Of a stretch of 32,000 bases of DNA, positions 2,396 to 27,612 are shown one piece after another. Numbering within the stretch: position 1 is the first letter of the stretch; every line of letters begins with the position of its first letter. The stretch covers positions 90,001-122,000 of the forward strand of contig NZ_CP010904.1 of assembly GCF_001017655.1 (NCBI RefSeq). Direction: 5' to 3'. The translations under genes and the position numbers were made by a program. Below the pieces are notes generated by a model. It saw nothing but the letters and a program-made list of their open reading frames with translations. It was not told the origin of the DNA and did no database searches. This stretch comes from Kiritimatiella glycovorans (GTDB lineage: Bacteria; Verrucomicrobiota; Kiritimatiellia; Kiritimatiellales; Kiritimatiellaceae).

Positions 2396-3505
2396 TCACA
2401 CCTCTTCCGCGCCGTCCAGCAGTTCGCGCACCTTTCGCAGCAGTGCGGCGGAGGAGCACGGCTTGGAGAGAAATGCGGCATGCGCGTCGTGCTTCCTTTT
2501 ATCCGTAATCAGGTCGGCACTGTATCCGCTTACGAACAATATCGGCGTATCCGGCGCGGCGGCCCTCCGCAGCGCGTCCGCCACCTCCGCGCCGTCGTGC
2601 CTCGGCATCACCACGTCCAGTACCGCCGCCCGGATCTGCGATGCTTTCTCCGCAATGACCGCCAGGGCCTCTTCGCCGTCCCGCGCCGTGATCACCCGGT
2701 ACCCCGCGGAAAGCAGAATGTTTCCGGCCCAGTCACGAACGCCCGCATCGTCCTCGGCCAGCAGCAGCGTTTCCGTCCCGCCGCGCGATGTCTCGATCTC
2801 CCTTCCCGAACCCCTTTCGGCTTCGCCGTCCACGACCGGGAAATAAATCCTGAACGTGGTGCCCAGGCCCGGCTCGCTGTAGACATGGATGGCCCCTTCG
2901 TGCTGGCTGACGATTCCGTAGACCGTGGAAAGGCCCAGCCCGGTTCCCTTGCCCACCTCCTTGGTGGTGAAAAACGGTTCGAACACGCGGTCCAGCGTCT
3001 CGCGATCCATCCCGCAGCCCGTGTCCGTCACGCTGATACGTACATAGCGCCCCGGCCGGACATCCGTATGGTCCCGGCAGTAATGCCCGTCGATCGTCAT
3101 GTTTTCCGTTTCGATCATCAGCCGCCCGCCCGCGGGCATGGCGTCGCGGGCATTTACACACAGATTCATCAGGACCTGTTCGATCTGCGAGGGATCGACC
3201 CGTACCGTCGCATCCCTGCCGGCGCCTTTAAACCGGTACTCGATGTGCTCGCCCAGCGCCAGGTTCAGCATCCGGGAAAAGGAGCGGATCAGCTCGTCGG
3301 GGTTCACATTTTTCGGCTCCATGCGCTGGTGCCGCGTGAAGGCGAGAAGCTGACGCGTTAGCGCCGCGGCCCGCTCGCCGCCGTGCGAGCTCTCGTTCAA
3401 CGCCTCGTGCAGTTCGGGGCGATCCGCCGCGTCCTGCGCGGCGAGCTGTGCGTAGCCCATCATCGACTGCAGGATATTGTTGAAGTCGTGGGCCACGCCT
3501 CCGCC
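2396..3505 (-). CDS. Hybrid sensor histidine kinase, C-terminal part (HisKA + HATPase_c + REC); downstream half of a frameshifted gene
   Basis: Track ORF 2396..3721. Homology begins at GGVAHDFNNILQSMMGYAQL (H-box). It continues with NLCVNARDAMP (N-box), DTGCGMD (G1), GKGTGLGLSTVYG (G2), then a receiver domain (LLLAEDD, LDVVMP, FLSKP). There is no credible independent start. Confidence 0.85.
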   Translation of the reverse strand, partial: GGGVAHDFNNILQSMMGYAQLAAQDAADRPELHEALNESSHGGERAAALTRQLLAFTRHQRMEPKNVNPDELIRSFSRMLNLALGEHIEYRFKGAGRDATVRVDPSQIEQVLMNLCVNARDAMPAGGRLMIETENMTIDGHYCRDHTDVRPGRYVRISVTDTGCGMDRETLDRVFEPFFTTKEVGKGTGLGLSTVYGIVSQHEGAIHVYSEPGLGTTFRIYFPVVDGEAERGSGREIETSRGGTETLLLAEDDAGVRDWAGNILLSAGYRVITARDGEEALAVIAEKASQIRAAVLDVVMPRHDGAEVADALRRAAAPDTPILFVSGYSADLITDKRKHDAHAAFLSKPCSSAALLRKVRELLDGAEEV

Positions 3506-5007
3506 AGCCGGCCGAACGCCTCCATCTTCTGGGCCTGCTGGAGCTGGTGCTGAACTTCCAGTTCCGCCGTGATATCGCGCGCCACCTTCACGTAATGCTT
3601 CACCTCGCCCCGCATGTTCCGCACCGGGGAAATCGTCGCGTCCTCCGTGAACTCCGTACCGTCCTCGCGCCGGTTGATCATTCGTCCCTTCCACGTGCCG
3701 CCCGAACGGATCGTGTTCCACAGGTCTCTGTAAAAGGCCTCATCCTGCCGCCCGCTCTTGAGGATAGCGGGCGTCCGGCCCAGCACCTCCTCGCGCCTGT
3801 ATCCGGTCATCGACACGAACGCGGGGTTCACGTACTCGATGTTCCCCTCGGGATCCGTCATGAGCACGCCTTCGACAGACTGCTCGACCGCGGAGTAGAG
3901 GCGGGACTGCTCCTCTTCCGCCCGCCGGTGTTCGGTGATGTCCCGCGCGACGCCGCACAGGTACTGCGGACGCCCCTCCCGGTCACGGATCAGCTGGGTA
4001 TGACAGTCTAGAATCACCTTGTGACCGTCTGCCCCGATATTTACCACCTCGCCGCGCCATTCGCCGTTTTCGCACGTGCTGCGAACGATTTCCCGCTGGC
4101 TTATATGGTCCTCGTCCTCGCCGTACTCCTCAACCGTTCCGCCGACGAGATCTTCGCGCGGCACGCCGAAGAGGCGGGACTGGGCTTCATTCACATACAG
4201 GATGCGGCCGTCGAGGTCGGTAAGGGTCACCAGATCGCCGATCTCGTCGAGAATGGTCGCCTGCCGCTCCAGCTGTTCGTCCGCTTCCATACGCTCCAGC
4301 GCGAAAGCGAAGTCATTGGCGACCTCCTCGAACAGCGCCTGTACCTCGCGGTCGCCGGCGTAATGCCCGCGGACGGAAGCTCCCATGTAGCCGTAGAGGC
4401 GGTCGCCGCGCTGCAGCCGCATGCAGATGCCGCTGCGGTCACGGTGATATTCGCGTACGGGACAACCGGAACATTCCCTGCTCGGGTCTTCCTTGACCAC
4501 GGGGCCGTCCCGACGCGCGGCCTCCTCGACACACGGCGGGGTGCCCTGACGGATCTCCTCGCAGAAAGCGCGAAACGCCTCCGGATGGATTCCCGCCTGG
4601 GCCGCGGTGAGAAGCCCTCCCTCTTCATCCGTCAGCACGATCCACGCGCCCGCGTAACCCGACTCTCCCGTGAGAATATCGCACGACTGCTGGATCAGCG
4701 TGTCCCGGTCGAGTTTGTGCGTGATGATCTGGTTGATGTCGCGTATGCCCCGCAGCACGCCGTTGAGAAACTGTATGCGGGTGAGGTGATGCCTGCGCTC
4801 GCGAACGGCACGATCGGCATAGACGGAGAAGACGATCATCACCGCGATGAATAACCCCCGTACCCATAGCTCGTGCGGTTCGCGCGGAAACAGCCACAGC
4901 AAGACACCGCCCTCCCGAAAGAAATACGCGTCTACGGCCGTTTCCAGAAGCCAGTAAGCGATTATCAGCAGAGCAGCCGTGCGGAATATTTTCGTGTTGC
5001 GGCTCAT
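3460..5007 (-). CDS. Hybrid sensor histidine kinase, N-terminal part (2 TM helices, Cys-rich GAF-like domain, two PAS domains); upstream half of a frameshifted gene
   Basis: Track ORF 3460..5100. The likely start is ATG 5007 (MSRNTKIFRTAALLIIAYWLL). It has PAS S-box-like segments (ILYVNEAQSRLFG, IEYVNPAFVSMTGY) and ends QKMEAFGRLAEAWPTTS*, breaking off inside the canonical GRLAGGVAHDFNN motif. Confidence 0.85.
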   Translation of the reverse strand: MSRNTKIFRTAALLIIAYWLLETAVDAYFFREGGVLLWLFPREPHELWVRGLFIAVMIVFSVYADRAVRERRHHLTRIQFLNGVLRGIRDINQIITHKLDRDTLIQQSCDILTGESGYAGAWIVLTDEEGGLLTAAQAGIHPEAFRAFCEEIRQGTPPCVEEAARRDGPVVKEDPSRECSGCPVREYHRDRSGICMRLQRGDRLYGYMGASVRGHYAGDREVQALFEEVANDFAFALERMEADEQLERQATILDEIGDLVTLTDLDGRILYVNEAQSRLFGVPREDLVGGTVEEYGEDEDHISQREIVRSTCENGEWRGEVVNIGADGHKVILDCHTQLIRDREGRPQYLCGVARDITEHRRAEEEQSRLYSAVEQSVEGVLMTDPEGNIEYVNPAFVSMTGYRREEVLGRTPAILKSGRQDEAFYRDLWNTIRSGGTWKGRMINRREDGTEFTEDATISPVRNMRGEVKHYVKVARDITAELEVQHQLQQAQKMEAFGRLAEAWPTTSTISCSR

Positions 5008-5111
5008 GAATCCGCTCCCCCCGAAAGCGCCGCCCCCGCCGTACCCCTCCGCGGCTGGCTCCGATCGAAGTCTATTTTTTTGCACCCCCGCGACAAGCAT
5101 CGATTGGGGGG

Positions 5112-5378
5112 CAGAATCAGAGTCAGAGTAAGAATCTGAATCAGAGTCAGAATCAGAGTCAGAGTAAGAGTAAGAGAAAGAGTGAGTGGGGCAGCAGAGA
5201 CCTGAAACCTGAGTAGGACACAGGGATCATAGAATCGGGGGAGTGGGATCGCGCCTGCGACGCTCCGAGTACGCGTACGAATCATGCTTTTCCGACCTGT
5301 AGCCGAGCCCGATTACGATGGCGTCTTACTCAGGTTTCAGGTCTCAGCTTTCCCGCTCACCCTCCCCCTCTTTCCCTG
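5112..5378. repeat. Composite long-hairpin repeat element, copy A: 12 tandem hexamers, imperfect inverted arms containing a perfect 19-bp inverted repeat, and a 52-nt conserved core
   Basis: Hexamers of form NAGARW (CAGAAT/CAGAGT/AAGAGT...) run 5112-5183. GAGACCTGAAACCTGAGTA at 5197-5215 has its exact reverse complement at 5327-5345. Flanking arm sequence is also partly complementary (about 5176-5218 vs 5323-5378). The core at 5232-5283 recurs inverted at 25298-25346. Confidence 0.9.
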
Positions 5379-5390
5379 TCACATCCTTTG

Positions 5391-5418
5391 TTGCCCGGCC
5401 GAGGCATAACGATATAAT
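5391..5418 (+). promoter_or_regulatory. Candidate sigma70-type promoter for the DUF4159-MoxR operon
   Basis: TTGCCC (5391-5396), 16-nt spacer, TATAAT (5413-5418), about 46 nt upstream of ATG 5464. A GGGAGGTGG RBS lies at about 5450-5458. Confidence 0.4.
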
Positions 5419-5463
5419 GGCCGAGGTGAGGGTAGAAATTGATTCTCACCGGGAGGTGGATTG

Positions 5464-6975
5464 ATGAAGACGCTTGGCCGGATTCTGTTTCCCCTGTTTG
5501 CGGCGGTTTGTGTCTGCGGCGCGGCCCAGGACGAGGACGCCTGGCTCAAGCCGCTCGGCCAGCCGCCCAAGGCGGCGCCGCGGCGCATTTCCGGCGGCGA
5601 ATCCCTGCCGCCGCTCCCGCTACCCGCCACCCCGCTCCGACGCACCGAACGGAAGCGGCAGCCCAGCCCGCCCACGCTCGTCACCAAGGTCATGTGGGGC
5701 GAGACCGCCTCGTTCCAGTTCGAGGACGGCAAGAGCATGGAGGTCGCCGACTGGAACCAGTGTCCCTCCGACGTGCAGTCGATCCTGCACAAGGCGCGCG
5801 GGCCGTTGCAGGTTCGCTACGGCTACGAGACAGCCCCGATCGCGGCGTTTCACGGCGACCCCGCCCGTACGCCCCTGCTGCTGTTCAGCGGTTCGCGTTC
5901 GATCCGGTTCGACGAGGATCAGCTCCGCAAGTTGCGCGCGTATGTCCTGCGCGGCGGCATGATCGTGGCCGATAACATCGCCGGTTCGCCCTTTTTCTAT
6001 CAGTCGTTCCGCGAAGCGATGCTCAAGGCGTTTCCCGAACTCGCCGTCCGCGAGATTCCGGACGACCACCCGGTCTACCACATGCTCGCGGAAGTCCGGC
6101 ACGTACATTACCCGCGCAACCGGGAGTCGAACGAACCCTACCTTGAGGGCATGTACGTTGGCTCGCGCATCGGCGTGCTGATCTCCCGATACGGACTCGG
6201 CTGCGGCTGGGACAATCACCACGTCCCGTTCATCGACGAGGCCGTGTTCTACGACGTGCCCTCTGCGAGTCAGATCGGGATCAACCTTATCGCCTACGCC
6301 GTCGGATACGCCGAAACCGCGCGCCGCGAGGCGGAGCCGGAGTGGTTCGGATCGCTCGACGAGCAGGACCCGACCGACCAGTTCGTCTTCGCCCAGCTCC
6401 GCCATGAGGGCGCCTGGAACGTCCATCCCGGCGGGGCGGCGGCCCTGCTGCGCCGGCTGGAACGGGATACCTCGATGCGCGTCAGCCTGAAACGGGTCGC
6501 CGTCGACCCCGGAAAAGACGATCTCTCCGGCTATACCTTCCTCTACCTGACCGGTCTGGACGATTTCCGGTGGAGCGATACGGAGGCGGCGCGCCTGCGC
6601 GGATTCCTGAATTCCTCCGGCACGCTGCTGATCAACAACGGGCTCGGACTCTCGACCTTCGACCGCGCCGTCCGCCGCGAGCTGCAGAAGGTCCTGCCGG
6701 GCGCGGAACTGGTCGAGATCCCCGCCGGTCATCCGGTCTACCACGCCGTCTTCCCGGTGCGCTCGGTGCGCTACACCCCGGCGGCGACTCCCGACCGCGA
6801 GGCGGCGCCGAAGCTTTACGGCGTCCGGCTGCACGGCGACCTGCGGGTCATCTACAGCCCCTACGATATCGAGGCGGGCTGGCAGGGCGGCGACCACCCT
6901 CTCGCGAAAGCACTCGAACCGCAGTCGGCCATGCAGCTCGGCGTCAATATTGCGATGTACGCCATGACGCACTAG
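5464..6975 (+). CDS. Secreted protein with two tandem DUF4159-like domains
   Basis: Signal peptide MKTLGRILFPLFAAVCVCGAAQ. Two similar halves each carry the DUF4159-type pattern (LLLFSGSRSIRFDEDQLRKLRAYVLRGGMIVADN...DDHPVYH and FLYLTGLDDFRWSDTEAARLRGFLNSSGTLLINN...AGHPVYH). The position upstream of moxR is typical. Confidence 0.8.
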   Translation: MKTLGRILFPLFAAVCVCGAAQDEDAWLKPLGQPPKAAPRRISGGESLPPLPLPATPLRRTERKRQPSPPTLVTKVMWGETASFQFEDGKSMEVADWNQCPSDVQSILHKARGPLQVRYGYETAPIAAFHGDPARTPLLLFSGSRSIRFDEDQLRKLRAYVLRGGMIVADNIAGSPFFYQSFREAMLKAFPELAVREIPDDHPVYHMLAEVRHVHYPRNRESNEPYLEGMYVGSRIGVLISRYGLGCGWDNHHVPFIDEAVFYDVPSASQIGINLIAYAVGYAETARREAEPEWFGSLDEQDPTDQFVFAQLRHEGAWNVHPGGAAALLRRLERDTSMRVSLKRVAVDPGKDDLSGYTFLYLTGLDDFRWSDTEAARLRGFLNSSGTLLINNGLGLSTFDRAVRRELQKVLPGAELVEIPAGHPVYHAVFPVRSVRYTPAATPDREAAPKLYGVRLHGDLRVIYSPYDIEAGWQGGDHPLAKALEPQSAMQLGVNIAMYAMTH

Positions 6976-6990
6976 AAAGGAACGGAACCC

Positions 6991-7980
6991 ATGTCGGATA
7001 AAGCGATCGAACAACTGGCGGCAGCCCGCGAGAAAATCCTCGACAGCGTCGGTCGCGTCATCATCGGCCAGCGTGCCGTGCTGCATGAAATCCTCGTGGC
7101 CCTGTTTTCCCGCGGGCACTGCCTGATGATCGGCGTGCCGGGACTGGCGAAGACGCTCATGGTGCGCACGCTCTCCGACAGCCTGCGGCTCCAGGGACGC
7201 CGCATCCAGTTCACGCCGGATCTGATGCCCTCCGACATCACCGGCACGGATCTGCTGGAGGAGGACGCCTCCGGACGACGCGCCTTCCGGTTCGAGCGCG
7301 GCCCCATCTTCACCAATCTGCTGCTCGCCGACGAGATTAACCGCACGCCGCCCAAGACGCAGGCCGCGCTGCTCGAGGCGATGCAGGAGCGGCGCGTGAC
7401 CGCCTCCGGCGAAACCTACTCGCTGCCCGAACCGTTCATGGTCATGGCCACGCAGAATCCGATCGAGCAGGAGGGGACCTACCCCCTGCCCGAGGCGCAG
7501 CTCGACCGGTTCATGTTCTGCATCCATGTCGACTACCCCGCGGAGGCGGAGGAACAGAAAATCCTGATGGACACCACCCGCGACGTCATGCAGGAAGCGC
7601 AGCCGGTCCTCGACGCCGGGGAAGTGATCGAGGTCCAGCGGCTCGTCCGCGAGGTCCCGGTGAGCGATCACGTGGCCCTCTACGCGGCGCGGCTCGCGCG
7701 GGCGACACGCCCGCAGGAAAAAGATGCCCCCGAATTTATCCGCCGCTGGGTCCGCTGGGGCTCCGGACCGCGGGCGGGACAGAACCTGCTGCTGGCGGCG
7801 AAAGTCAACGCCCTCTTCGAAAACCGCGGCAGCGTCTCCTGCGCCGACGTCCGCCGCTTCGCGCACCCCGTGCTCCGCCACCGTATGTTCTGCAATTTCT
7901 CCGCCGCCAGCGAGGGCGTGGAGGTGGACGACATCGTCGACAAGCTGATCGAAGCGGTCAAGGAACCGGAGTACGGGTGA
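6991..7980 (+). CDS. moxR: MoxR-family AAA+ ATPase
   Basis: 329 aa. Walker A GVPGLAKT, Walker B LLADEINR, and TPPKTQAALLEAMQERRVT, PEPFMVMATQNPIEQEGTYPLPEAQLDRF: full-length AAA_3/MoxR signature. Confidence 0.95.
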   Translation: MSDKAIEQLAAAREKILDSVGRVIIGQRAVLHEILVALFSRGHCLMIGVPGLAKTLMVRTLSDSLRLQGRRIQFTPDLMPSDITGTDLLEEDASGRRAFRFERGPIFTNLLLADEINRTPPKTQAALLEAMQERRVTASGETYSLPEPFMVMATQNPIEQEGTYPLPEAQLDRFMFCIHVDYPAEAEEQKILMDTTRDVMQEAQPVLDAGEVIEVQRLVREVPVSDHVALYAARLARATRPQEKDAPEFIRRWVRWGSGPRAGQNLLLAAKVNALFENRGSVSCADVRRFAHPVLRHRMFCNFSAASEGVEVDDIVDKLIEAVKEPEYG

Positions 7981-7985
7981 GACCG

Positions 7986-8043
7986 GAGACCTGAGTTTGA
8001 AACCTGAAACCTGAAACCTGAAACCTGAGTTTGAAACCTGAAC
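7986..8043. repeat. Heptanucleotide microsatellite: (GAAACCT)4 + GAGTTT + GAAACCT in the moxR-DUF58 spacer
   Basis: GAGACCTGAGTTTGAAACCTGAAACCTGAAACCTGAAACCTGAGTTTGAAACCTGAA. It shares the GAGACCTGA / GAAACCTGAGT motif with the arms of the 5197-5345 inverted repeat. Confidence 0.9.
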
Positions 8044-8063
8044 CCCTTCCCGTCACTGCCCCG

Positions 8064-23529: not shown

Positions 23530-25068
23530 ATGAAAATCGTAAACACCGCCACCATGAAGGAACTCGACCGCCGGACCATCGAGGAGGCGGGCGTTTCCGG
23601 AGAGGAACTCATGGAACGGGCGGGAACGGGTATCGCGCGCGTCGCGGAGGAGTGGCGTATCCTCGGCGGCCTCTCCGCCATGAGCGCCCGGCTGCTGGCC
23701 GGCGGCGGCAACAACGGGGGCGATGCCTTCGTCGCCGCGCGAGTGTTGCGGGGAATGGACTGGGAGGTCGAGGTCTGGGCCACCAGACCCGCGGGCGACT
23801 ACGGCGGTGAGACGGCCGCCCACCTCCGGCGGATGCTCGACGCCGGCGTCCCGCTGCGGGAACTGACCCGCGAGGAGGACTGGGACGAGGCGGAACGAAC
23901 GGCGGAACCGGTCGATCTGCTGATCGACGGATTGCTGGGGACAGGCACTAAAGGCGCGGCGCGCGGACTCCCCGCCCGCGCGATCCGCTACCTCAACGCG
24001 CAGCGCCGCACCACCATGGTCCTCGCCATCGACATCCCCTCCGGCATGAACGGCGATACGGGGGAGGCGGAGGGCGTCGCCGTGGTCGCGGACCTCACCG
24101 TGACCATGGCCCTGCCCAAGGCGGGGCTTCTGCGTCCGCGGGCGGCGGCGCACACGGGCCGGCTCGACGTGGTCGATATCGGCATCCCCGCGTCGTATGT
24201 CGACGAGGCCGCGGGCGAGGAGGGTCTGGAATTTGTCGGGCGCGAAGATATCGCGTCCGTGTTTCCCCCGCCCCGGCCGCGGGCGGCCCAGAAGGGGGAT
24301 TTCGGTAAGCTGCTGCTGGTCGGGGGCGCGGTGGGCATGAGCGGGGCGCTGGTGATGGCCGGACGCGCGGCGCTGCGCGGCGGGGCGGGGCTCGTCACGC
24401 TGCGCGTGCCGCCGGAGGCCTACACGGCCGCCGCAGCCGCGGCGCCGGAATTGATGATTCATCCCTCTCCCGAAGGCGGCGACTGGGGGCTGGGCCTCTA
24501 CGACGTGCTGCTGATCGGTCCCGGGCTGGGTCGGTCCGAAGAATCCCGGCTGCAGGTTCATCACCTGCTCGCGGAGCGGACGGGGACGGCCGTGGTCGAT
24601 GCCGACGCGCTTCACGTCCTGGCCGGCGAGCCGGAGCGCATCGACGGGACCCGCGCGGCGACCGTGATCACCCCCCACCCCGGCGAGGCCGCGAAGCTGC
24701 TCGGATGCGCGCCGGCTGACATCCAGCAGGACCGCCGCGCCGCCGCGCGCGAGCTGGCCGGACGCAGCGGGGCGGTGTGCATTCTCAAGGGCGCCGGCAC
24801 CCTCATCGCGCGCCCCGACGGCGCCCTGGCCGTGAACATGAACGGCAATCCCGGCATGGCGACGGGCGGGAGCGGCGACGTGCTGGCCGGTCTGCTCGCG
24901 GCGCTGCTCGGACAGGGACTCGACCCCTGGGACGCCGCGCGCGCGGGGGTTTTTCTCCACGGCCGGGCGGGAGATCTCGCGGCGGCCGGACAGGGCGAGA
25001 TCTCCGCGACTGCCCCGGACCTGATCGAGGAACTCCCCGCCGCACTGCGCGAGTTCACGCCGAGGTGA
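23530..25068 (+). CDS. nnr: Bifunctional NAD(P)H-hydrate repair enzyme Nnr (epimerase + ADP-dependent dehydratase)
   Basis: N-terminal YjeF_N (GGGNNGGDAFVAAR, DGLLGTG). C-terminal carbohydrate-kinase-like domain (KGDFGKLLLVGG, VVDADAL, ITPHPGEAAKLL, GNPGMATGGSGDVLAG). The start is taken at MKIVNTATMKELD. Confidence 0.92.
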   Translation: MKIVNTATMKELDRRTIEEAGVSGEELMERAGTGIARVAEEWRILGGLSAMSARLLAGGGNNGGDAFVAARVLRGMDWEVEVWATRPAGDYGGETAAHLRRMLDAGVPLRELTREEDWDEAERTAEPVDLLIDGLLGTGTKGAARGLPARAIRYLNAQRRTTMVLAIDIPSGMNGDTGEAEGVAVVADLTVTMALPKAGLLRPRAAAHTGRLDVVDIGIPASYVDEAAGEEGLEFVGREDIASVFPPPRPRAAQKGDFGKLLLVGGAVGMSGALVMAGRAALRGGAGLVTLRVPPEAYTAAAAAAPELMIHPSPEGGDWGLGLYDVLLIGPGLGRSEESRLQVHHLLAERTGTAVVDADALHVLAGEPERIDGTRAATVITPHPGEAAKLLGCAPADIQQDRRAAARELAGRSGAVCILKGAGTLIARPDGALAVNMNGNPGMATGGSGDVLAGLLAALLGQGLDPWDAARAGVFLHGRAGDLAAAGQGEISATAPDLIEELPAALREFTPR

Positions 25069-25069
25069 G

Positions 25070-26216
25070 TTACGCGGAATCGTGTCGAGCTTGTTCCACT
25101 CGACCCTGTCCAGGGACGCACGGCGTACCGCAGGCAAACGTCGCGACTCTTTCCGCCTCGTAAAGACGGAATTCAGAAGAGGTCTCTCGCGGAGGCGCGG
25201 AGAACGCAGAGGGGATGAAGATGAAAAAAGTTCTTCGTAGATTTTTATGGTGAGCGGCGGCAAGTCCGCTCGCGTCACATCGTACTCGTACTCGTACTCG
25301 TACGCGTACTCGGAGCGCCGAAGGCGCGATCCCCCTCCCCCGATTCGAGGAACTCGAGTACGAGTACCGCTTCGCTGAGTACGAGTACGAATTACGTTCT
25401 CTGTGAATCCCGATTTCGACTTCGGTCCGGAGTTCGAGATCCCATCCGTGTTTTGGGGATGTCCCGAATCCTGTTGAAACTCGTTGGCGGTCTCGGTCTT
25501 CATTTCGATGTAGTTCCTTGTCATTCACTTGTCCAGTCCCTGTTCGGCAGTTCGCTTCGCTCTCTGCCTGGGGGTGAGGCGTCGTGGAGTGGAGCCCGTT
25601 CCCGCCGGAGGCGGGATGGCCCGGAGGGCCAAGGGCGGAGCGGAGCGACGCCTCAACAGCTTCCGATGGCCAGCCCAGGGATTTCAAAAGCACCGGGATC
25701 TGACGATAGCCTTTGATTCGACGGAACCCTTTCTCGGCCCTCAGAAGCGAATAGGCCAGCCAGCGTTCCGCCTGATCCGTCTCTGCGCGCCAACGCTTCA
25801 CCCGCCCGATTTTTGCGCGTGTGTTTCGGAACGGGTTCTCGATGCAGTTTGTGTTCGTCAACGTGGTGTGTAGAGTGGACGGCGCATTCAGCTTGTGAAC
25901 CGTAATGAGCTCCTCACCGGCCTCGTGCAGGGATTCCAGGGCCTTGTGGCTGTGCCGGCTCAGAAAGCGTTCCAGATCGGCGAGTGCTTCACGTCCGGCT
26001 TCTTCGCCTTCCACGGAGCGGAGACGCTTGAAAAGGTCGCTCACGCTGCCGTGATGACGCCTGGAGAGACAACGCTTAATATTTCGTTCCTTATGCACCA
26101 GGCATCGTTGAATGCGCGCTCGCGGAAAATGCTTCAAGACGCTGTTATGAAGTGCCCGAGAACCGTCGAGAACCGCCAACGGATCGCCCTCGAACTCAAG
26201 ACCGCGGTGGACAAGC
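25070..26216 (-). pseudogene. IS256-family transposase, C-terminal part, same frame as the N-terminal part; reads through the IS end into flanking repeat DNA
   Basis: Continues LVHRGLEFEGDPLAVLDGSRALHNSVLKHFPRARIQRCLVHKERN...NCIENPFRNTRAKIGRVKRW...RIKGYRQ. Family similarity fades near 25650, but there is no in-frame stop until 25070. Confidence 0.8.
25282..25388. repeat. Composite hairpin repeat element, copy B (inverted relative to copy A): GTACTC hexamer arm, conserved core, complementary GAGTAC hexamer arm
   Basis: (GTACTC)3-GTACGC-GTACTC runs 25282-25311. GAGTAC pairs lie at 25356-25367 and 25377-25388. The core at 25298-25346 matches the reverse complement of 5232-5283 with 3 mismatches in 49 nt (manual alignment). 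Confidence 0.9.
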
Positions 26217-26224
26217 CGGTCGAG

Positions 26225-26369
26225 CCAGCGATTCTCATTATGGCTTCACCCTTTTCGGTCGGGGTGGCACCCGACCCTCCCAGTGCCCGAAAATGCGTCG
26301 GATATCGACTCGGGAGGGACGGCTGCCACGCCGTCCGCGGTCGGAATGCGGCCATAATGAGAACTGCTG
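26225..26369. mobile_element. 145-bp MITE-like insertion inside the transposase gene, with terminal inverted repeats of about 19 bp and an 8-bp target-site duplication
   Basis: Direct repeat CGGTCGAG at 26217-26224 and 26370-26377. Termini are CCAGCGATTCTCATTATGGC ... GCCATAATGAGAACTGCTG. The interior has GC-rich hairpins (GGTCGGG..CCCGACC, CCCTCCC..GGGAGGG, GACGGC..GCCGTC). Deleting the insert plus one repeat restores ...DALLDR-LVHRGLEF... Confidence 0.75.
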
Positions 26370-27007
26370 CGGTCGAGCAATGCGTCACACACTTCTGTCG
26401 ATTCCTGTGCGCCTATTTCAAAATCCAGCATAACTTTGCGGCCGTCCAGCGTAATGCCCAGCCCCACAATGGCGCTGAGATCCTCGGACAGTACAATGCC
26501 GTCCAGCAGCATGCAGAAGAACCTCTCGGACTTCAGGTCGCGGTCACGGAGCTTCTGTATGCGCTGTCGGCCCTCGACAATCCAGGCGCGGGAAACCCTG
26601 CTGCGTCCGGGCGCTGAATCGGGATACAAGGTTTTCTGATCACGTGAACTGACTCCGGCAGCTGTGGCACGCAAGATACGGCCACGAAGGTCGTCGGCCC
26701 TGTTGACCGCGTCGTAACTTTTAAGCCTGACCTCCTTCGATGTGTCTGCCTCATGGCGACGTACACGCGGCTTGCGGATCTCCTCATCAATACCGTCAAT
26801 TCGAAGTCCTACGCGGGTTCCGCCGGCACGTCGGCAGCCTCTGTCTCCTGCCGGCTTGTAGGCCGGACCACACAGTTCTGTGACCTCTTCAGCCAGAATA
26901 TCGGCGATCAGGGTTCGCATTTCACCACGCAGCCAGTCACGGAAAACATCTCCTGCTGCAGACGGTTCAACTTGTCCAAGGGCTTCAAGGACGCTATTGT
27001 CACTCAT
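26246..27007 (-). pseudogene. IS256-family transposase, N-terminal part, terminated by a stop codon inside the nested insert
   Basis: ATG 27007 with an AAAGGAGAC RBS. Contains FFCMLLDGIVLSEDLSAIVGLGITLDGRKVMLDFEIGAQESTEVCDALLDR, the IS256-type DDE N-terminal region. Homology stops at 26378, and the remaining residues are insert-encoded. Confidence 0.85.
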
Positions 27008-27101
27008 GGCGGTCTCCTTTCGGGTTGGTTTGCCCCGAGCGTCCAACATGGACGCTCAGGAGACCGCCTTCAAGTTTCAACAGTCAACGGGACACTTCCC
27101 C

Positions 27102-27612
27102 GGTGACGCTGGGGGCGTGGTACGCGCAGGGGACGCGGGACGCCTACGACGAGCTGAACCTGTACGCGGAATACGGCGTCGCATGGAAGGGGTTCGAGTT
27201 TTACGCGGGCTACACGCGGCTCGAGTTCATCATCGATGACGCCTTCGACCACGAATTCGGCGCCGGCGTCGCGAGCCCGTCCTGGGGGCCGTGGACCTTG
27301 GGCGTAGATTACGTCTACTCCACCGAGGCCGACGGTGCGTTCGTCGAGGCCGGTCTGGAGGGGGCCTTCCCGCTGCTGGAAGAACGGGTCGTCCTCGTGC
27401 CCGCCCTCGTCGAGGGGGTCGACTTCGGATACGCCAGTCCGGAGTATGACGGGCCGAATCATCTGGAAGCACGGCTCACGGCAATCGTGCCGGTCTCCGA
27501 TGACGTGGAATTGAGCGCCTACCTCGCCCATTCCTGGGGGCAGGGCGACGTCGATCGCGACGGGGGCAAAGACCTGACCTGGGGCGGCATGGGCGCGGCG
27601 TGGACGTTCTGA
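27102..27612 (+). pseudogene. Outer-membrane beta-barrel (porin-like, possibly TorF/Gcw_chp-type) gene, 5'-truncated by the IS
   Basis: Alternating amphipathic strands (LNLYAEYGVAWKGFEFYAGYTRLEF, WTLGVDYVYS, VELSAYLAHSW) and a C-terminal GMGAAWTF ending in Phe. No signal peptide or start. The part of the track ORF before 27102 is IS terminal sequence. Confidence 0.6.

Follow-up and report, generated by a model that had tools for sequence, protein, structure and literature searches.

Downstream of the nnr gene of Kiritimatiella glycovorans lies a hairpin whose arms are made of tandem GTAC hexamers and whose interior recurs, in inverted orientation, 20 kb away within the 32,000-nt stretch of chromosome that we analyzed (the window). 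Where did such a unit come from, and does it move, serve the neighboring genes or merely persist? The genome of K. glycovorans L21-Fru-AB comprises 2,949,723 bp and carries 75 transposase genes (PMC5148204). The organism is without a close relative in the databases, and the next best homologs of its nnr product are only 48-51% identical to the Kiritimatiella glycovorans protein. After weighing the comparisons, folding predictions and searches described below, we tentatively favor the explanation that the unit downstream of nnr (copy B) is a relic of a short (~54 nt) lineage-specific non-coding interspersed repeat that survives in at least two copies, and that a hairpin has grown around it locally.

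Two inverted copies of a 54-nt core

An earlier note had proposed, from a manual alignment, that a core at this locus exists in a second, inverted copy with about 94% identity. That copy is real. A repeat search returned 5227-5280 against 25298-25351 as the longest inverted pair within the window (54 nt, 91% complementary), and BLASTN recovered the same pair (E = 5e-15). Direct counting gave 49 of 54 identical bases, or 46 of 49 (94%) over the narrower interval 25298-25346, and neither BLASTN nor the count overturned the manual alignment. When a 24-nt core pattern was searched with up to three mismatches, the only matches in the window were the two core sites, compared with none in 100 shuffles. 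Alignment of about 300 nt around each copy revealed no similarity between the loci beyond ~55 nt; with the similarity confined to this length, the segment is neither part of a longer duplicated block nor an IS terminus. The coordinates of these and the neighboring features are collected in Table 1.

Table 1. Features of the window bearing on the two core copies and their surroundings
Feature	Coordinates	Strand	Evidence or remark
PAS/GAF sensor gene	3460-5100, start 5100	-	Pfam
Copy A hairpin	5179..5363	.	41-nt arms 5179-5219 and 5323-5363, 85% complementary; repeat search; folds
Core, copy A	5227..5280	+	Between the divergent starts of the PAS/GAF sensor gene and the DUF4159-MoxR-DUF58-BatA operon
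DUF4159-MoxR-DUF58-BatA operon	start 5461	+	Divergent from the PAS/GAF sensor gene; Pfam
(TGAAACC)n / TGAGTT array	7978..8045	+	Spacer between MoxR stop and DUF58 start; TRF; BLASTN to 5197-5221 and 5328-5352
nnr, bifunctional NAD(P)H-hydrate repair enzyme	23530..25068	+	Pfam Carb_kinase and YjeF_N
Whole hairpin unit, copy B	25280..25390	.	111 nt, G/C-rich core body as loop; folding predictions
Left arm, (TCGTAC)5.5 microsatellite	25280..25312	.	TRF, period 6, 5.5 copies, 92% matches
Core, copy B	25298..25351	-	54 nt, - strand reads TCCTCGAATCGGGGGAGGGGGATCGCGCCTTCGGCGCTCCGAGTACGCGTACGA; inverted match to 5227-5280, 49/54 identical
Right arm	25353..25390	.	Inverted complement of left arm; pattern search; arm comparison
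IS256-family (Mutator) element	25455..27099	-	Ends GGGGATGTCCC...GGGACACTTCC; Pfam Transposase_mut on both ORF halves; inverted repeats
MITE inside the IS	26226-26369		144 bp; 19-nt terminal repeats; 9-bp duplication CGGTCGAGC on both sides
5′-truncated outer-membrane-like gene (P0121)	27103..27612	+	169 aa, "hypothetical protein"; far side of IS

In copy A orientation, the core closes with the 16-mer CCGAGTACGCGTACGA, which is identical in the two copies and contains a perfect 10-nt palindrome, GTACGCGTAC, equivalent to two units of a GNGTAC hexamer. Beyond this 16-mer, copy A passes into unrelated DNA (ATCATGC...), and copy B runs on unbroken as GTACGAGTACGAGTACGA, that is, three further GAGTAC units.

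That the inverted pair bounds a 20-kb transposon or an invertible segment was rejected on the even G+C and the housekeeping genes between the cores (Bat/MoxR operon, ffh, rpsP, trmD, rplS, rnhB and nnr); khpA, a UPF0102 gene and a NUDIX gene were also assigned there by Pfam. A diversity-generating TR/VR pair (DGR) was discarded as well, given that the five differences include T/G and G/T and are not adenine-specific; no reverse transcriptase was found among the window ORFs. Nor is the core a tRNA or att-site fragment, as ARAGORN found no tRNA or tmRNA. One frame, RTRTRS-V/A-A/E-GAIPLPRF, is open through both cores. However, a small protein in this frame was rejected, since it shows only one synonymous difference and its third positions are T-rich against a genome GC3 of ~0.8.

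The copy B hairpin and its hexamer arms

The copy B hairpin begins 211 nt downstream of the nnr stop. TRF and a pattern search placed the (GTACTC)n and (GAGTAC)2 blocks where they had been claimed to lie. In the left arm, the inner two units (25298-25312) are the conserved core tail and the outer three are extra units; the arm includes a perfect (TCGTAC)4 at 25280-25303. The right arm consists of two (GAGTAC)2 blocks, GAGTACGAGTAC at 25356-25367 and again at 25377-25388, with CGCTTCGCT between them, and its reverse complement, TCGTACTCGTACTC-AGCGAAGCG-GTACTCGTACTCGAG, gives the same hexamer series as the left arm except for a 9-nt filler.

The pairing of the arms, as proposed earlier, is borne out. 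The outermost 14 nt form a perfect inverted repeat (25280-25293 / 25377-25390). For the 131-nt segment 25270-25400, the predicted folding energies are -56.1 kcal/mol (z -4.5) for the + strand and -60.2 kcal/mol (z -3.6) for the - strand; with DNA parameters the value is -33.5 kcal/mol (z -4.3). The predicted hairpin has about 27-30 interrupted base pairs. Compared with a background of all 140-nt windows of the same 32 kb, regressed on G+C, the minimum free energy of copy B falls ~2.2 sd below expectation and within the best 2%. The fold is therefore real but not extreme, and it is far from unique among the segments of the window.

The idea that slippage shaped these arms also holds, inasmuch as the arms are microsatellites and slippage is the natural source of arm length. 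The window contains 3 perfect tandem arrays of period 5-8, compared with 0.08 in shuffles, an excess of ~40-fold, and those of period 6-7 are all non-coding. These counts mark slippage-prone intergenic repeats as a trait of the K. glycovorans genome. In a phase-variable contingency locus, a tandem repeat within an ORF or between promoter elements alters frame or spacing through its unit. The 6-nt unit here preserves reading frame; in the one strain available, no intact ORF spans the array and no promoter consensus accompanies it.

A different hairpin around copy A

Copy A also sits in a hairpin loop, and its arms are built on GAGACCTGAAACCTGAGT units. The core is off-centre in a 103-nt loop, with the arms 8 and 42 nt away from it, and the predicted fold leaves the core tail CCGAGTACGCGTACGA unpaired. 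The folds of this hairpin reach -96.7 (z -7.2) and -104.6 kcal/mol (z -9.1). The array at 7978-8045 is of the same repeat type as the copy A arms, and BLASTN within the window found the GAGACCTGAAACCTGAGT module dispersed to three sites.

These observations bear on the earlier proposal that copy A keeps a relic of the hexamer arm and that an arm module was exchanged around a stable core. The supposed relic is the 16-mer already described, which the two copies share as part of the conserved 54 nt. The left array of copy B, in turn, reads as this core tail plus three GAGTAC units grown in place, and the arms of copy A are located elsewhere and consist of a different, (TGAAACC)-type repeat. Judged by sequence and position, the copy A and copy B hairpins are not homologous, so an exchange of arm modules is a less economical account than independent local growth.

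Origin of the copy B unit

The interspersed-repeat origin that we favor can be spelled out as follows. The core ends in GAGTAC-GCGTAC-GA, two hexamer units whose GTAC centre is self-complementary, and this tail may have acted as a proto-microsatellite. Replication slippage on the two-unit tail would have added three units on one side, and the (GAGTAC)2 blocks would have arisen on the other through fold-back template switching, the mechanism known from quasi-palindromes, or through a small inverted duplication. Fold-back switching would be feasible here because a run of GTAC-centred units can self-pair. The product would be a 111-nt hairpin with the G/C-rich core body in its loop, the hairpin itself being secondary. 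The analysis shows the duplication with its sharp borders, the common tail, the arrays and their pairing, and the lack of known RNA, terminator or coding signals; the order of these events, the origin of the arms by slippage and template switching, and the place of the core in a wider, though small or decayed, family are inferred.

Template switching at quasi-palindromes is an established mechanism (PMC7202029), and copy B resembles the events described by the Ripley model (PMC7202029) in several respects. The GTAC hexamer is partly self-complementary, the arms are composed of one unit in both orientations, and one copy B arm directly extends the two-unit motif present in copy A. In contrast to known events, which turn short hairpins of ~10-30 nt into perfect ones, the inverted units of copy B flank a 40-nt unrelated loop, and at least one extra step is needed.

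A relic repeat is supported by the presence of two 49/54 copies with unrelated flanks, the dispersed GAGACCTGAAACCTGAGT module, a true MITE in the window, the 75 transposase genes of the genome and the lack of any detected signal of function. Against it, only two copies were seen in the 32-kb window, and both cores lie in the loops of hairpins with unrelated arms, which an entirely neutral account has to treat as coincidence. Additionally, a means of movement is not evident: shared terminal repeats, a target duplication and a candidate transposase in the window are all missing.

Alternatively, the second core may have arisen only once, by templated repair, a possibility that we regard as real but doubtful. 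If a GTAC-hexamer palindrome already stood at locus B, a break or a stalled fork there could have been repaired by copying ~54 nt from copy A, or the reverse, with priming by microhomology with GAGTACGCGTAC; the genome would then hold two copies in total. Long palindromes are known break sites. The two loci are merely 20 kb apart, one junction is seamless inside the hexamer microhomology, and a third copy was absent from all collections scanned, although the coverage of the remaining K. glycovorans genome by those scans is not certain. However, the 9% divergence demands either an old event or error-prone copying, the other junction is without clear microhomology, and the position of copy A in a hairpin loop is left unexplained.

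Tests for function

If the core were a working element, its own structure or its relation to the neighboring genes might betray it. On both strands and in both copies, the core alone was no more stable than shuffles (z +0.09 to +1.14), and structure inside it is limited to a 5-bp inner stem and the 10-nt palindrome GTACGCGTAC. Rfam 15 at gathering thresholds gave no match across the window; at copy A, permissive searches picked up only generic long-hairpin matches to models of plant miRNA precursors, far below threshold. No terminator-like site was found in 24900-25600 or 4950-5600. The copy B stem precedes AATTACG rather than a T/U run, and copy A is located between divergent gene starts, so that neither has the makeup of an intrinsic terminator. 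No sigma-70-like promoter site was detected at copy B, and the sole promoter-like site at copy A (5391-5418, + strand) is outside the hairpin.

It is unlikely on these grounds that the C-rich strand, which is the + strand at B and the - strand at A, carries a functional cis element. Such an element could be imagined as a structured RNA or a protein-binding site, serving at copy B as a terminator or stabilizer without a U-tract after nnr and at copy A as a 5′ leader for the PAS/GAF sensor gene. Consistent with such a role, both copies on that strand point to a downstream gene or former gene, long stems frame both, and the inner stem changes from GCGCC-GAA-GGCGC in B to GCGUC-GCA-GGCGC in A, where pairing is retained, as G-U, on the C-rich strand alone. 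This wobble is the sole hint of constraint; it is a single change between two sequences and proves nothing. Besides the stability of the core, which does not exceed that of shuffles on either strand, and the missing U-tract, terminator consensus and Rfam match, the two sets of arms pair with different stretches of the core, so that A and B have no fold in common, and a terminator has no role between the divergent gene starts at copy A.

The earlier description of the core as selected therefore finds no backing: it has no fold signal alone, no Rfam match, one synonymous change and no relative elsewhere in the collections scanned. The copy B element is most likely a repetitive "junk" leftover rather than a working genetic switch. 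It is probably neutral or selfish DNA without a dedicated function; if it affects the nnr transcript as a 3′ stem-loop, it would do so only incidentally.

Comparison with known repeat families

In size, extragenic position and hairpin form, the closest likeness of copy B is to REP/REPIN sequences, and yet the element is assigned to neither the REP/REPIN nor the MITE class. REPs are repetitive extragenic palindromes, and REPINs are inverted doublets of them that form hairpins (Bertels & Rainey 2011, PMC3116915). REPs occur in tens to hundreds of copies per genome, are tied to a RAYT gene and have the palindrome itself as their conserved unit (PMC3116915). Copy B shares with them a short (~110 nt), extragenic, non-coding and lineage-specific character and inverted termini able to form a hairpin in ssDNA or RNA. 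In contrast, conservation here falls on the unpaired interior, the two copies do not have the same pairing parts, and the window contains two copies; the 54-nt core is not an imperfect palindrome of 20-40 nt of the kind that defines a REP. No Y1/RAYT family match was obtained among 30 window ORF translations searched with Pfam, and such a gene could lie elsewhere in the genome. The likeness to MITEs lies in the small size, the non-coding content, the terminal inverted repeats and the transposase-rich genome. However, MITE copies share terminal repeats and make target duplications, and copy B does neither: its termini are TCGTACTCGTACTC / GAGTACGAGTACGA, those of copy A are a different 41-nt pair, and no direct repeat flanks 25280-25390 (...GTCACA / ATTACG...).

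We consider it quite unlikely that copy B is an active non-autonomous element, REPIN/MITE-like or targeted to hairpin loops, and mobilized in trans by a transposase whose gene lies elsewhere in the genome. Its 111 nt and perfect 14-nt inverted termini do resemble REPINs (PMC3116915), both cores lie in hairpin loops, and the transposase-rich genome holds at least one true MITE. The inverted termini, however, are microsatellite units that copy A does not share, target duplication is lacking, the conservation of the interior is the opposite of MITE logic, the window contains no Y1/RAYT gene, and a scan of 185,579 species retrieved no further copy.

In eukaryotic foldback (FB) transposons, a central loop is flanked by long inverted arms built from short tandem repeats; the arms are homologous between copies and the loops vary. 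Copy B likewise has inverted tandem-repeat arms around a loop, but here it is the loop that is conserved and the arms that vary. To our knowledge, FB transposons have no bacterial counterpart. We can imagine an inside-out foldback element, in which the core is a conserved cargo that homes to or induces long hairpins and the arms are rebuilt from the local microsatellite, and we regard it as very unlikely. If it were true, the genome would be expected to contain additional copies, all of them in hairpin loops and each hairpin with its own kind of tandem-repeat arm.

Search for relatives

The pattern GGGATCGCGCC-N5-CGCTCCGAG, which covers 20 conserved core positions, gave five unrelated matches among 185,579 species genomes (one genome per species), about the level of chance. 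The two copies of the window itself were not returned, so either the window or the whole genome is masked in or absent from this collection. Should the masking be limited to the window, a large and uniform family of the core is unlikely, because by our estimate about 15-40% of copies at such divergence should match all 20 positions. In JGI metagenomes, the pattern AATCGGGGGAGNGGGATCGCGCC gave two matches in one coding sequence with no continuation, and two scans of IMG/VR viral contigs with core patterns gave one chance match. Viral-contig scans with IS-end and MITE-end patterns returned nothing or chance matches. BLASTN against plasmids and phages matched the hexamer run alone, in actinobacterial and phage coding DNA.

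What the locus signifies depends on the copy number. If there are only two old copies, it is a small curiosity and would illustrate how, in a bacterial intergenic region, a two-unit palindromic hexamer can seed a microsatellite and then a hairpin. If the chromosome holds more copies in hairpins with differing arms, the little-studied phylum Kiritimatiellota would be seen to carry small repeats of an undocumented style, and these would provide a handle on the abundance of 6-7-nt intergenic tandem arrays in K. glycovorans.

The neighboring insertion sequence and the truncated gene

The copy B element had been described as abutting an IS end that lacks a target duplication. The missing duplication stands: no 8-bp target duplication flanks the IS at 25455-27099. 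"Abutting" is too loose, with the IS end at 25455 beginning 64 nt past the copy B hairpin. The borders 25455 and 27099 were set by three related copies, L008-L010, which have 81-86% DNA identity to the IS and stem from two metagenome contigs and a Lentisphaeria MAG. The K. glycovorans genome holds other copies of this IS, the cluster of its paralog P0145 counting 6 members. An 8-bp duplication is likewise not visible around these related copies in other organisms, with one (right-hand) end of the L009/L010 copy not firmly placed. An HD-domain gene is found on the far side of the IS (Pfam), as is the outer-membrane-like gene, from which ~60 N-terminal residues are absent, including the conserved SKYVSEGRDNL motif. 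Its homologs measure 226-268 aa, and its match to the 235-position family profile starts only at position 58-68, varying with the reading tested.

A reading in which copy B lies inside this gene, disrupted by the IS, with the right arm as an EY-rich first beta-strand, was rejected. It had been based on the frame ELEYEYRFAEYEYEL, an SD-ATG 'MKMKKVLRRFLW*' at 25215 and a BLAST match extending FEIPSVFWG over the junction. However, the family profile gains merely 1.5 bits from the left flank of the IS, and a 46-column N-terminal profile (W-x-SKYVSEGRDNL-xx-GG) scores 4.2 bits there, a score equaled or exceeded in 92 of 300 shuffles; the N-terminal profile has no match anywhere in the window. Collinearity of the IS flanks was dropped on the same profile evidence.

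With the 5′ part of the outer-membrane-like gene gone, the IS marks a deletion or an IS-IS recombination junction. The earlier suspicion of a breakpoint is thus fitting, but it is tied to the IS rather than to the hairpin, and the proposal that the element is a preferred site of insertion or recombination rests on this one IS beside a 5′-truncated gene. That the hairpin attracted the IS256-family element or an adjacent rearrangement is highly improbable. The short distance to an IS end without target duplication, and the truncated far-side gene whose 5′ part is missing from the window, would agree with such a hotspot. On the other hand, the case is single, copy A has no IS nearby, the related IS copies show no 8-bp duplication either (again with that one L009/L010 end loosely placed), and the IS alone explains the truncation.

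For annotation of this region, two warnings follow: P0121 is a 5′-truncated outer-membrane-like gene, and the IS transposase is split into two pieces on the - strand because of the MITE insertion.

A MITE splits the IS256-family transposase gene

The 144-bp insert within the transposase gene of the IS256-family insertion sequence (IS) has terminal inverted repeats of 19 nt (CAGCGATTCTCATTATGGC / GCCATAATGAGAACTGCTG) and is accompanied by a 9-bp direct duplication, CGGTCGAGC. The related IS copies L008-L010, from a Lentisphaeria MAG and two metagenome contigs, do not have the insert. A MITE has therefore broken the transposase into two ORFs. Moreover, a paralog cluster of the transposase in K. 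glycovorans (P0145; 253 aa, 6 members) consists of the N-terminal fragment only, and therefore several IS copies in this genome seem to carry the same split.

Features near the IS and the tandem arrays
Feature	Position	Strand	Remarks
MITE, 144-bp insert	26226-26369		Inside IS256-family transposase gene; inverted repeats, direct duplication, comparison with L008-L010
5′-truncated outer-membrane-like gene	27103-27612	+	Adjoins IS; P0121, 169 aa
(TGAAACC)4.4 array with TGAGTT punctuation	7978-8045		Occupies short spacer between MoxR stop (7980) and DUF58 start
CAGAGT / AAGAGT array, about 11 units	5112-5183		Directly upstream of PAS/GAF sensor gene ATG (5100, - strand)

The IS end and its flanking genes

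In a fold scan of the 32 kb, the top folding after G+C correction was found in windows around 26941-27120. At 27037-27057, immediately within the IS terminus, GAGCGTCCA-ACA-TGGACGCTC forms a perfect 9-bp hairpin that spans the start codon of the transposase (27049, - strand).

P0121 is a 5′-truncated member of an uncharacterised outer-membrane-like family, for which Pfam has no model and whose proteins have about 230-250 aa. A profile search did not find the conserved N-terminal SKYVSEGRDNL segment of this family anywhere in the window. On the other side of the IS, an SD-like GAGGGG followed by an AT-rich 12-codon ORF (MKMKKVLRRFLW-stop) lies within 25215-25271 (+), and no connection between this small ORF and the truncated gene could be demonstrated. 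The ORF looks like an orphaned secreted-protein gene start or a leader peptide. After it, directly ahead of the copy B hairpin, is a 6-bp stem, GAGCGG...CCGCTC (25252-25271).

Tandem arrays and sensor ORFs

Both arms of the hairpin enclosing copy A of the core are built from the unit of the TGAAACC array. The tetranucleotide GAGT is common to all tandem arrays near both cores (CAGAGT, AAGAGT, GAGTAC and CCTGAGT).

The HisKA-HATPase-receiver and PAS/GAF ORFs (2396-3721 and 3460-5100, - strand) share about 260 nt, read in different frames. They could be a hybrid sensor kinase broken by a frameshift, or the overlap could just be an unusual one.
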